A program made the position numbers and the translations under genes. A stretch of DNA of 64,000 nucleotides from Eledone cirrhosa (Eukaryota). Of this stretch, positions 6,506 through 58,919 are shown in pieces (position 1 is the stretch's first letter; the number at the start of each line of letters is the position of its first letter). The notes under the pieces are model-generated. The model was not told where the DNA came from. It did no database searches and worked only from the letters and a program-made list of their open reading frames with translations. The stretch covers positions 113,956,001 through 114,020,000 of the forward strand of contig OZ024744.1 of the NCBI GenBank assembly GCA_964016885.1. The letters are read 5' to 3'.

Positions 6506-7395
6506 ATTATGAAAATAAACCAAAGAAGCCTTCAATACATCAAAAGTCTTTATTAGCCAACAGTGATATTGTGATTTTAGTTGTTATTCTAACATTTATA
6601 TTGTTTGTGCAAATTAACCGGAGATTATCTATTATATTATATTATTATATAATTATATAGTTTATTATATATTTTATGCTTACTTTTAATCATTTATTCT
6701 TCATTTTATACTGTAAATATTATATGCATTATATTTTAATTTTTTTTCATTTGTATTTTTCATTTGTATTTTTATTTTTATTTTTATTATTATTACTATT
6801 ATTTATATTTAAACTCTTGATAAGGGTTAGTTTGTGCTTCTATTGATGGAAATGTGTATTGATATATATGTATATATGTGTACATATGTATATATATATA
6901 TGTATATTGGGCCTTTTAACATTATTATTATTATCATTATTAATTATATTATATTATATTATATTATGTATAGTACAATAATTCCCGCTCTATATCACCA
7001 CCTCTGTTTTAGCTCTAGCTTTTGCATTGGACTATATTTGTAATATGGTTCAAAATGTTACTTACTTCTTTAGTAATTAGCACTTGATAATTTTTAACTT
7101 GATGATTTTTACCCGATTATTTTCCTATGATTTAATCTATGTACACTCCATATTCTTCTGAGTTTTCGGCTTGTATTGGCTGATAGTGCTTCTTATAGCT
7201 TTAATTGCACTGATGAGTCCTTAATAGGACGAAACATTGTTGGCTAATAAAGACTTTTGATGTATTGAAGGCTTCTTTGGTTTATTTTCATAATTCTTCG
7301 GCTCTGTTTAATTACATCGAGCTATACCTTTACTGTCATTTCTATAATATGAAGAGGGTGTTTAACTCCAACACACTCTAGTATTTTAATTCTTA
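6506..7395 (+). mobile_element. Non-coding PLE-derived element: inverted 57-bp arm + AT-rich body + hammerhead + tail
   Basis: 6506-6562 is the reverse complement of 7238-7294. CTGATGA-GTCCT-taat-AGGAC-GAAA lies at 7210-7234. Confidence 0.75.
7201..7250 (+). ncRNA. Type-I hammerhead ribozyme motif (core and stem II perfect; stem I and cleavage triplet GUU degenerate)
   Basis: ctgatga gtcct taat aggac gaaa c att gtt ggctaataa. Confidence 0.72.
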
Positions 7396-7959
7396 TATAT
7401 ACATATATATTTATATATATATATATACATATATATTTATATATATACATATATATTTATATATATATATATGGAGGCACATATATATCTATATATATAC
7501 ATATATATATATACATATAGATATATATATATACATATATATATATATAAATATATATATATATACATATATATATACATATATATATACATATATATAT
7601 ACATATATATATATACACATATATATATACACATATATATATACATATATATACATACATATATATACATAAATATATATACATAAATATATATACATAT
7701 ATATATATATATATATATATATATATATATATAAATATACATATATATATATACATAAATATATATACATATATATATATATATATATATATATATATAC
7801 ATATATATATATACATATATATATATACATATATAAATATATATATATATATATACATATATAAATATACATATATAAATATACATATATATATATACAT
7901 ATATAAATATATATATATATACATATATAAATATATATATATATATATATATATAAATA

Positions 7960-8537
7960 TATTTATTAAAATAACAGATTAAAGTTTAAGCAAAGAATCG
8001 CTGCTTTCACCCTTAACGGGATCTTCTGAAACTAACAAAGTCAATCTGTAAACGCAGAACTGGATATTTCAAAAAACGTTGCAACCGGAGGAAGACAGGA
8101 AGACGATACTTTGGTTCATGGTGACGTTCGCTGGCAAAAAACGAATAATACGTCATTAATAGGAGCGGTGAAAAACAATTACGTGCAAGGACAGAACCAC
8201 GTTTATGGTATAAAAGAGGTCGTAGACTAATGTTCTCTAAGTGGTGACGTATTATTCGTTTTTTCCCGTTCTTTGCCAGCGAACGTCACCATGAACCAAA
8301 GTATCGTCTTCCTGTCTTCCTCCGGTTGCAACGTTTTTTGAAATATCCAGTTCTGCGTTTACAGATTGACTTTGTTAGTTTCAGAAGATCCCGTTAAGGG
8401 TGAAAGCAGCGATTCTTTGCTTAAACTTTAATCTGTTATTTTAATAAATATTTGCTCTTCGGTTCTTATATATTTGATATATATTTTCCTTATCGAGCCC
8501 TCTCTGGATTTTAGTCTTCAATTTTATTAGTATTACT
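7960..8537 (+). mobile_element. Foldback PLE-derived element: ~195-bp inverted arms, variant hammerhead in each arm, 3' tail
   Basis: 7960-8155 is the reverse complement of 8245-8450. agttt-CAGAAGA-tccc gttaa gggt-GAAA-gca..tgc-tt-aaact lies at 8377-8427, mirrored at 7983-8033. Confidence 0.72.
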
Positions 8538-9357
8538 ATATATAAATATATATATATATACATATATAAATATATATATATATATATATACATATATATA
8601 TATACATATATAAATATACATATACATATAGACACATATATATATATATACATATATATATATACATATATAAATATACATATACATATATATATATATA
8701 CATATATAAATATACATATACATATATATATATATACATATATAAATATACATATACATATATATATATACATATATATACATATATATATATATATATA
8801 CATATATATACATATATATATATATATACATACATATATATATATATATATATACATATATATATATACATATATATACATATATATATACATATATATA
8901 TATACATATATATACATATATATATATATATACATATATATACATATATATATATACATATATACATATATATATATATACATATATACATATATATATA
9001 TATATATACATATATATATATATATATACATATATATACATATATATATACATATATACATATATATATATATACATATATATATATACATATATATATA
9101 TATACATATATATATATACATATATATATACATATATATATACATATATACATATATATATATACATATATATATACACATATATATATATACACATATA
9201 TACACATATATATATACACATATATACATATACATATATACACATATATACATATATATATACACACATATATATATACACATATATACATATACATATA
9301 TATACACACATATATATATATATATATATATATATATACATATATATATACACATAT

Positions 9358-57904: not shown

Positions 57905-58483
57905 TGATGGCTGTAACTCAATTTCATGTAATGCCATCACTTGATACTTAATCATGACCATCACTGACGTGACCTTTTAGTCCTGCTAGGGACTTGCCTG
58001 TGGCCAGCAATACCATGTATCGCAATAAATGTCACATATCAAGCGATGTCTGTGCTTGAAGTGTTTACAAGTGAGGAAAGGCTTTGCACGGAGCCAGTCC
58101 CACTCTCTGAACAGCCAATGTATTTACCCCAAAAGAAGAACTGGTCTACATTATTGGATACAAATGAAGTCGTAGATTTTATATTAGAGTGACCTTCTCC
58201 TAGAGAGATGTCTTAATGAAGACTAGGGATCTCTCACTCCACTGCCTCCATCCCCCCTCTCCACCACCACCACAAAAAAAACTCTGAACATCGAATGTAT
58301 TTACTCTAAAAAGTGACAATCCCACCAAGCTTGCTTGGTGGGGAGGGTGAATTTGGACACCCTTGGAGATAAAAAACAAAACCTGTCAAAGGGCGGAGGA
58401 ATTCAGGAGAGTCAACGGCCATCCAATAAACTTTATTTTGTGTGGAGTGAGAGACTCCTAGTCTTCATCAAGACATCTTTCAC
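57905..58483. mobile_element. Diverged bipartite RTE derivative with inverted 5' part
   Basis: 57905-58242 (minus) resembles 41174-41580. 58330-58483 (plus) resembles the 5' part. 58207-58242 and 58443-58478 are complementary. Confidence 0.6.
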
Positions 58484-58525
58484 TTACACACACACACACA
58501 CACACATATATATATATATATATAT

Positions 58526-58641
58526 ATAAAATATTAAACAAATAATGAATAAACAATTCCTTATATTAAACAAAAAAAGTTCATGAACTTTTTTTGTTTA
58601 ATATAAGGAATTGTTTATTCATTATTTGTTTAATATTTTAT
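58526..58641. repeat. Perfect 116-bp spacerless palindrome followed by ~130-bp tail
   Basis: 58-bp arms centred on tca|tga at 58583/58584. Confidence 0.92.
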
Positions 58642-58919
58642 CTTGACTCTGTATACCGTTTATCTTTCACCGAAAGTGGTTTTTCATTACATCTCTTCTT
58701 TCCATGATATCCGGAATACATTGAGTTCTTCATACGGATTGGACACTACCGTAAACTCTTGGTAGATTTATCTACATATATATATATATATATATATATA
58801 TATATATATACATATATATATATACACACATATATAATCTTTAATGAGCCCTTTTCAGATTTTGGTCTTTGTATTTATTATTACTATTATTACTATCTCT
58901 CTCTCTATATATATATATA

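Follow-up and report, generated by a model that had tools for sequence, protein, structure and literature searches.

What gave rise to the short, hairpin-like islands that lie between the microsatellites of a 64,000-nt stretch of the Eledone cirrhosa genome (assembly GCA_964016885.1, contig OZ024744.1, positions 113,956,001 to 114,020,000; G000:C28:113956001-114020000)? This stretch, hereafter the window, belongs to a genome of 3.0 Gb in 1796 contigs, has a GC content of 34% and is rich in (TA)n throughout. A first-pass annotation had listed nine such islands and proposed that they form a population of small derivatives of Penelope-like elements (PLEs), which look like miniature inverted-repeat transposable elements (MITEs) and are probably retroposed. 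With a probability of around 85%, we conclude that six of the nine are the truncated, folded-back 3' ends of Hydra-like coding PLEs, that two more are likely of the same nature, and that the ninth is a non-coding tandem repeat with a hammerhead motif that carries the same marks. The retroposed, non-MITE character of the islands was borne out by their collinearity with coding parents, their one-sided tails and their variable arms. The view that they are small elements in their own right survives for the island at 23389 only, a retrozyme, as six others are truncated coding insertions with variable 5' ends and two more probably are. The islands and the one coding foldback of the window are the following (paired arms, their identity and remaining tail in brackets).

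6506-7395, plus strand: family E foldback with a 60-nt inverted arm without tail, 830 nt of 3' untranslated region (UTR), a predicted hammerhead core at 7210 and a 101-nt tail (6506-6565 and 7235-7294, 98%, tail 101 nt)
7960-8537, plus strand: family B foldback with predicted hammerhead cores of the variant CAGAAGA at 8382 (plus) and 8028 (minus) and an 87-nt tail (7960-8161 and 8250-8450, 98%, tail 87 nt)
18090-18292, unstranded: family G, a 133-nt tail-less antisense arm with a predicted hammerhead core at 18167 (minus), joined to a plus-strand tail
23389-24348, unstranded: family C foldback of a non-LTR (long terminal repeat) retrozyme, two head-to-head monomers with predicted hammerhead cores at 23725 (minus) and 24061 (plus) and a tail of around 60 nt on the left (23450-23788 and 23998-24348, 99%, tail around 61 nt)
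26510-26845, plus strand: family D foldback with a 170-nt tail-less arm, an intact predicted hammerhead (core 26609, minus), a shorter tail-bearing arm and a 90-nt tail (26510-26585 and 26679-26755, 100%, tail 90 nt)
39300-39585, plus strand: family A foldback with predicted hammerhead cores at 39395 (minus) and 39436 (plus) and a partly deleted and duplicated tail (39300-39376 and 39456-39532, 94%, tail 53 nt)
54801-55022, plus strand: older relative of families A and G with a degenerate hammerhead core at 54863 and a 69-nt tail (54801-54840 and 54914-54953, 90%, tail 69 nt)
57741-57884, plus strand: older relative of family B (79% identity) with a degenerate hammerhead near 57801 and most of the tail gone (57741-57793 and 57813-57865, 89%, 19 nt of tail remaining)
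58526-58770, plus strand: family F foldback, a perfect 116-bp palindrome (58526-58641) plus tail; the family tail measures 135 nt and ends at 58776
44381-49917, plus strand: coding Hydra-type PLE foldback with an inverted arm at around 44381-45633, a 110-nt tail and predicted hammerhead cores of the variant CCGATGA at 44534 (minus) and 49651 (plus)
45568-47799, plus strand: the slightly 5'-truncated reverse transcriptase-endonuclease (RT-EN) frame of the 44381 element

All nine islands adjoin TA- or CA-rich sequence, in agreement with their reported embedding in (TA)n. The common plan ascribed to them, an inverted arm and an unpaired tail, was recovered in eight; no inverted duplication was found in 18090-18292, where an antisense arm joins the tail alone. 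The placement of the arm upstream and the tail at the far end fails at 23389, and the islands are mostly, not entirely, unrelated in sequence, given the kinship of 7960 with 57741 and of 18090 with 54801 and 39300. The island at 58526 does lack a recognisable hammerhead, as had been noted: the cut point of its palindrome, which local alignment overlooked and BLAST recovered, falls just downstream of the family F hammerhead (with a long helix II), so that the latter sits just upstream of the portion kept in the window copy.

The 3' part of each island served as a query against the genome, and the sequence upstream of the matches revealed the connection to coding elements. For each DNA query the best 40 candidates were scored, which yields a sample and not a census, in which a few duplicated loci are still counted. 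In this way, six islands (39300, 7960, 26510, 6506, 58526 and 18090) were found to match the 3' ends of coding PLEs elsewhere in the genome (families A, B, D, E, F and G, respectively). The family F parent forms 7.4-kb tandem units with an 840-aa RT-EN frame (locus L295), in which the tail of one unit directly adjoins the 5' UTR of the following one, and all 40 scored matches are 100% identical. The family B parent has a 685-aa (5'-truncated) RT-EN frame in L227, with the endonuclease lying around 1.1 kb upstream in L041 and L042. The family D parent is a single insertion (L224 3709-5232) with arm, endonuclease, 1.2-kb UTR, hammerhead and tail. A Hydra-type endonuclease is collinear with family E in L224 (around 2 kb upstream) and, across a deletion, in L162, with a UTR of more than 1.7 kb, and likewise lies around 1.9 kb upstream of family G, collinear, in the foldbacks L376 and L377. 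For family A, a collinear endonuclease was found in L314, L309 and L312; the RT-EN sequence in L297 was rejected as its parent, being a different and decayed element. The UTR of family A was seen to contain two internal tail-like repeats that are used as extra 3' ends. Judging from their relatives, 54801 and 57741 are probably truncated insertions of coding elements as well. The 44381 element itself belongs to a family with many genome copies that have 785-aa open frames and 97-99% identity over the part searched.

The anatomy of the copies was analyzed in 346 records, 1.4 Mb in total. The 3' ends of the arms fall into two classes in each family (tail/tail-less/other: A 46/42/27, B 41/44/11, D 64/68/4, E 30/11/2, F 34/17/1), and the tail that separates the two fixed ends measures 55-135 nt, depending on the family. 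Runs of TA or CA occur within 16 nt of 195 of the 215 tail ends and of 168 of the 182 tail-less ends. The 5' ends are variable, arm lengths differ between copies in both directions, and most foldback centres overlap by a few bases. There were 111 foldback pairs, of which 98 were testable, and in 88 of these the two arms differed less from each other than from the mean same-side arm of other copies (A 13/16, B 14/17, D 46/49, E 3/4, F 12/12); the distance to the own arm and to others was 0.023 versus 0.061 for family D and 0.001 versus 0.019 for family F. As the two arms of one copy thus share copy-specific variants, each insertion likely builds the inverted arm anew. The first-pass annotation had left the choice between fixed ends and random 5' truncation, and the link of the tails to autonomous PLEs, to be settled genome-wide; the outcome is truncation, with coding parents for six islands. 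Full-length queries gave a false look of fixed length to families A and D, an effect that with tail-side queries was gone for A and partly for D.

The tails have a further element in common. Eight out of ten begin with GCTC or ACTC and later contain the matching GAGC or GAGT, such that the swap keeps the pairing; in 5000 shuffles at most two of ten tails passed. The motif was defined after the tails had been seen, and there is kinship between families A and G and a weak one among D, J and K, which qualifies these counts. That this RCTC...GAGY hairpin positions the reverse transcriptase is a guess on our part.

On the basis of their sequence, all families carry type I hammerhead motifs near the 3' end. 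A scan of the window for the core and helix II gave five matches (mean 0.48 and maximum 2 in 100 block shuffles), and a relaxed full type I descriptor, composed after the motifs had been seen, gave eight (mean 0.045 and maximum 2 in 200 shuffles), by which the excess over shuffled sequence that the first-pass annotation had made its touchstone is confirmed. A strict full scan gave four matches and missed forms with a short helix III. Six further hammerheads were recognised through family copies (7210, 8028, 8382, 15852, 39395 and 39436), and two are decayed (54863 and 57801). The figure of over a dozen hammerheads in 64 kb is therefore defensible by family comparison, which gives around 14, with the proviso that only eight pass a descriptor. 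The Rfam models Hammerhead_1 (7204-7248, 23.7 bits, cut-off 34) and Hammerhead_HH9 (24047-24109, 18.5 bits, cut-off 52) matched below their cut-offs; in a scan of the whole window no hammerhead was found among the best 150 of 301 matches, which were dominated by microRNA models on (TA)n. The predicted hammerheads of family B and of the 44381 family have a changed U4. No clear pile-up of 5' ends was found at the predicted cleavage site (family B: 2 of 43). The hammerhead would be present in the islands because it lies near the 3' end, and it need not act in insertion.

To which PLEs do the parents belong? Pfam gave no match for any of the three PLE proteins of the window, so the RT and endonuclease domains were read from motifs. 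The clade Hydra is defined by an RT followed by a GIY-YIG endonuclease, with RWK, DKT, CxCX5C, CxxC and CxH motifs (Craig et al. 2021, PMC8557442), and by these motifs the parents, including 44381-49917, fit this clade. The 785-aa, 840-aa and 685-aa (5'-truncated) frames each make up one open reading frame (ORF) with RT first and GIY-YIG at the C-terminus. The N-terminal motif reads RWK in the 44381 family and RWR in family F, the other parents being truncated before that point, and DKG is replaced by DKT in all three frames that reach it. The CxCX5C linker occurs in six of the seven frames scanned (the miss is the L309 fragment) and also in the family G parent; it was not seen in the family D parent. 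In place of CCHH, CxxC..E was present in four and CxH in five of the seven. An earlier assignment of the parents to the clade Neptune was dropped in view of the published Hydra definition. The 44381 element had been described as a Naiad-type PLE with the same plan as the islands; the foldback with arm and tail stands, and the Naiad assignment does not, as the RT comes first and the GIY-YIG domain last. Naiad PLEs share the (TA)n targeting, the inverted copies and the tails; however, they have an N-terminal endonuclease and lack canonical hammerheads (PMC8557442), neither of which is true here. With the Hydra clade (PMC8557442) the elements share domain order, motifs, (TA)n targets and a 3' type I hammerhead, in which a T-T at the base of helix II is often unpaired. 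They differ in the coexistence of at least eight families, of which several have open frames and copies that are 97-100% identical, and in their size and long microsatellite-rich 3' UTRs: the family F unit reaches 7.4 kb, while published elements are generally shorter than 3 kb, a tendency that is not diagnostic. Their tails measure 55-135 nt. One octopus family, Hydra-1_Obim, is listed together with a hammerhead table in the accessible part of the PMC8557442 supplement, and PMC13282606 counts PLE families in Octopus vulgaris, with no mention of this insertion anatomy in its accessible text. Loci L378-L381 represent another Hydra-type family, with 680-719-aa open frames and no tie to any island.

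The ninth island stands apart. Family C is a 474-bp head-to-tail repeat with one predicted hammerhead per unit and a longest stop-free frame of 101 aa, in arrays of at least 17 units; in the array of L305 the 17 full units are 0-2 substitutions apart in their first 290 nt. A PLE protein match was found in one of 30 loci (L210), outside the array. Family C thus has the sequence features by which a non-LTR retrozyme is defined. Like the metazoan non-LTR retrozymes described in the accessible portions of PMC7229834 and bioRxiv 10.64898/2026.07.22.740005, it is AT-rich and ORF-less and consists of head-to-tail type I hammerhead monomers that occur singly or in long arrays. It differs from them in the length of its monomer, 474 bp against the reported ~170-400 nt, and in having PLE-type inversions and a two-site tail. 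Its hammerhead has an unpaired T-T at helix II, which is common in the Hydra table of PMC8557442 as far as accessible. The arrays are dispersed over many chromosomes in (TA)n, have variable 5' ends and end at two fixed places around 60 nt apart. A motif scan found opposite-facing pairs of a tail end and a tail-less end in 11 of 30 loci, counting the window's own and two duplicates; such pairs also occur in L306 and, by alignment, in L205, L211 and L307; no clean case of a pair with two like ends was found among the 30 loci, several being ambiguous. Both arms in the window begin inside the end of the previous unit, which implies that the template exceeded one linear unit. As these insertion marks match those of the PLE stubs, the retrozyme likely owes its copying to an enzyme of the same kind. 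Cervera and de la Pena 2020 (PMC7229834) and Li et al. 2026 (bioRxiv 10.64898/2026.07.22.740005) have proposed PLEs as drivers of retrozymes on the basis of co-occurrence and similarity; the accessible text of neither holds a relevant passage on inversions or tails, and in the literature searched, with subscription titles largely outside it, no published account of a retrozyme with a PLE insertion signature was found. The marks of family C would provide direct genomic support for the mobilisation of retrozymes by Penelope-type enzymes. A short diverged stretch at L224 5500-5600 resembles the family C end and possibly represents a second retrozyme family.

Beyond the nine islands and the 44381 element, the window contains further PLE pieces:

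30483-30670, unstranded: family D stub, a tail-less arm with a predicted hammerhead core at 30588 (minus), joined to part of a tail
31240-31400, minus strand: family K tail-less arm with a predicted hammerhead core at 31334
12988-16040, plus strand: family J, a 5'-truncated Hydra element with a 424-aa RT-EN end, a long UTR, a predicted hammerhead core at 15852 and a tail

No inverted arm was found for the family J element, and a foldback at 12673-16040 was rejected, having no arm of its own.

The following mechanism would account for these structures. The RT-endonuclease protein would nick both strands of a (TA)n site, and two complementary DNAs (cDNAs) would be primed, one from each of two fixed RNA start sites 55-135 nt apart, the tail being the stretch between them. 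As a rule, both cDNAs would end prematurely and be joined head to head, in many cases via 1-5 nt of microhomology, to give arm, arm and tail. A protein of this kind would also copy the retrozyme in trans, with multimeric or circular RNA as the template. A Poseidon protein has been shown in vitro to nick both strands of AT-rich DNA and to begin reverse transcription at two internal sites, between which the tail lies (Frangieh et al. 2024, PMC11167929); the protein is predicted to be a dimer, and hammerhead cleavage was dispensable in vitro (PMC11167929). PLEs have long been known to have inverted copies and tails (PMC8557442 and, as far as its accessible text goes, PMC3846280). The head-to-head inverted copy, the one-sided tail and the palindromic or microhomology junction are shared with published insertions (PMC8557442; PMC11167929; the accessible part of PMC3846280), whereas the tails reported there, at 30-40 bp, are shorter than those found here, most of which begin with the RCTC...GAGY hairpin. 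We give even odds to the proposal that an animal retrozyme with two priming sites 60 nt apart reflects Penelope-type internal priming on circular or multimeric RNA, and that the hairpin positions the RT much like a telomerase template boundary.

Several observations weigh against truncated insertions by this route. Genome searches did not recover a coding parent of 54801 or 57741, nor a coding PLE with a family C-like tail, and the RCTC...GAGY hairpin was not found in the tails of the 44381 family or, the case that counts here, of family C. The close identity of arms could also arise by gene conversion or hairpin repair after insertion. The endonuclease copies of family A are mostly interrupted by stops, for which reason its recent spread may depend on the protein of a sister family. 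Finally, the 5' ends are not fully random. Around 45 family D arms stop at a single site, 68-74 nt upstream of the hammerhead core and 259 nt from the 3' end, seven of 22 incidental arms included, and in query-biased sets the 5' ends of family A (17 of 33, at 5-18 nt) and of family F (12 of 49, at -3 to 11 nt) cluster immediately upstream of the core. Such clustering could indicate short RNAs that start just upstream of the hammerhead, from a promoter in the terminal repeat, and act as non-autonomous elements in the manner of short interspersed nuclear elements, although their sequence belongs to a coding element. This remains a tentative option, as an RT pause or a template-jump hotspot would yield the same picture, families B and E have no such single stop, and in a tree of 73 family D arms the stopped and longer ones are mixed (17 label changes against a shuffled mean of 16.2, a few 'long' labels being alignment overrun). 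Given this mixing, the stop is best seen as a repeated event and not as a separate short lineage; either a transcript start or an RT stop could underlie it. The family D run search gave no RNA holder among the matches listed.

Other routes to the inverted arm appear less probable. According to the accessible text of Arkhipova et al. 2013 (PMC3846280), which favours self-priming for inverted PLE copies, one cDNA folds back and primes itself, or an antisense transcript does so. The perfectly palindromic centres of 58526, of four of 16 family A pairs (at 124/124) and of several equal-armed F pairs would fit this, and the identity of arms within copies is compatible with it too. We nevertheless regard self-priming as unlikely, since most pairs are unequal-armed, in either direction, and in some cases an arm is joined to the tail alone (18090, 30483) or, in L177 and L242, to an internal fragment of endonuclease; two priming events are favoured because they account directly for the fixed outer end of the second arm, which coincides with the second start site. 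For family C, the long arrays and a hint of a higher-order length pattern in L305 might point to a satellite that spreads by unequal crossover at the DNA level, with the inversions being secondary. This is improbable, as copies lie scattered in (TA)n on many chromosomes, their 5' ends vary, and the two fixed 3' ends sit one at each end of head-to-head pairs. Least of all do we expect the islands to be MITEs, i.e. DNA transposons that are non-autonomous, carry terminal inverted repeats and have TA as their insertion site. They share with MITEs the small size, the hairpin shape and the high number (hundreds to thousands of search candidates per family), and the TA flanks could conceal a TA duplication. 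Yet they are asymmetric, with a one-sided tail and variable arms instead of symmetric terminal inverted repeats and a fixed length, and they form part of retroelement 3' ends, with hammerheads, collinearity with RT-EN frames and copy-specific variants common to both arms; the coding parents contradict this origin directly.

Various other features were noted. PLE stubs and the retrozyme nest in one another's 3' UTRs, at the (TA)n tracts (L229 6173-9770; L299 210-4400). An RTE-like piece near 48232-48750, nested in the UTR of the 44381 element, is a piece of the long interspersed nuclear element (LINE) of which a fragment lies at 50757-52472 (minus), with C2H2-type zinc fingers at its end. Long open frames of 1045 and 1070 aa, with a cysteine-rich insert after the RT, lie at 2513-5650 (minus) and 18195-21407 (plus); we take them to be RTE-like LINEs with an AP-endonuclease and an RT, and broken copies were found at 9356-12020 and 36800-43400. 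A GIY-YIG fragment of another PLE type (25671-25949, minus), with a CxxxxCxxC linker and 65% identity to a C-terminal endonuclease in L227, is probably Neptune-like. At 12675-12910, (TA)n surrounds a further small element, an imperfect inverted repeat whose 54-bp end is duplicated, and two similar short segments at 12020-12130 and 12550-12650 end at a TA run, each with CTGATGA and no complete hammerhead. The window further includes a 200-N assembly gap (24974-25173) and a degenerate (ACC)n tract of 1.2 kb (34766-35944).

Based on the above, most of what the islands represent is known biology: new Hydra-type families with standard PLE insertion anatomy, and one retrozyme that bears PLE marks. 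For annotation, this means that in such genomes hairpins by the thousands that look like MITEs are stubs of retroelements. For work on how PLEs form inversions and tails, several young Hydra families found here offer ready test substrates, as they have open frames, priming sites that are fixed and a candidate hairpin for positioning. Family C, in turn, would add insertion-level evidence to the PLE-driven movement of animal retrozymes, which so far has been argued from co-occurrence and similarity.

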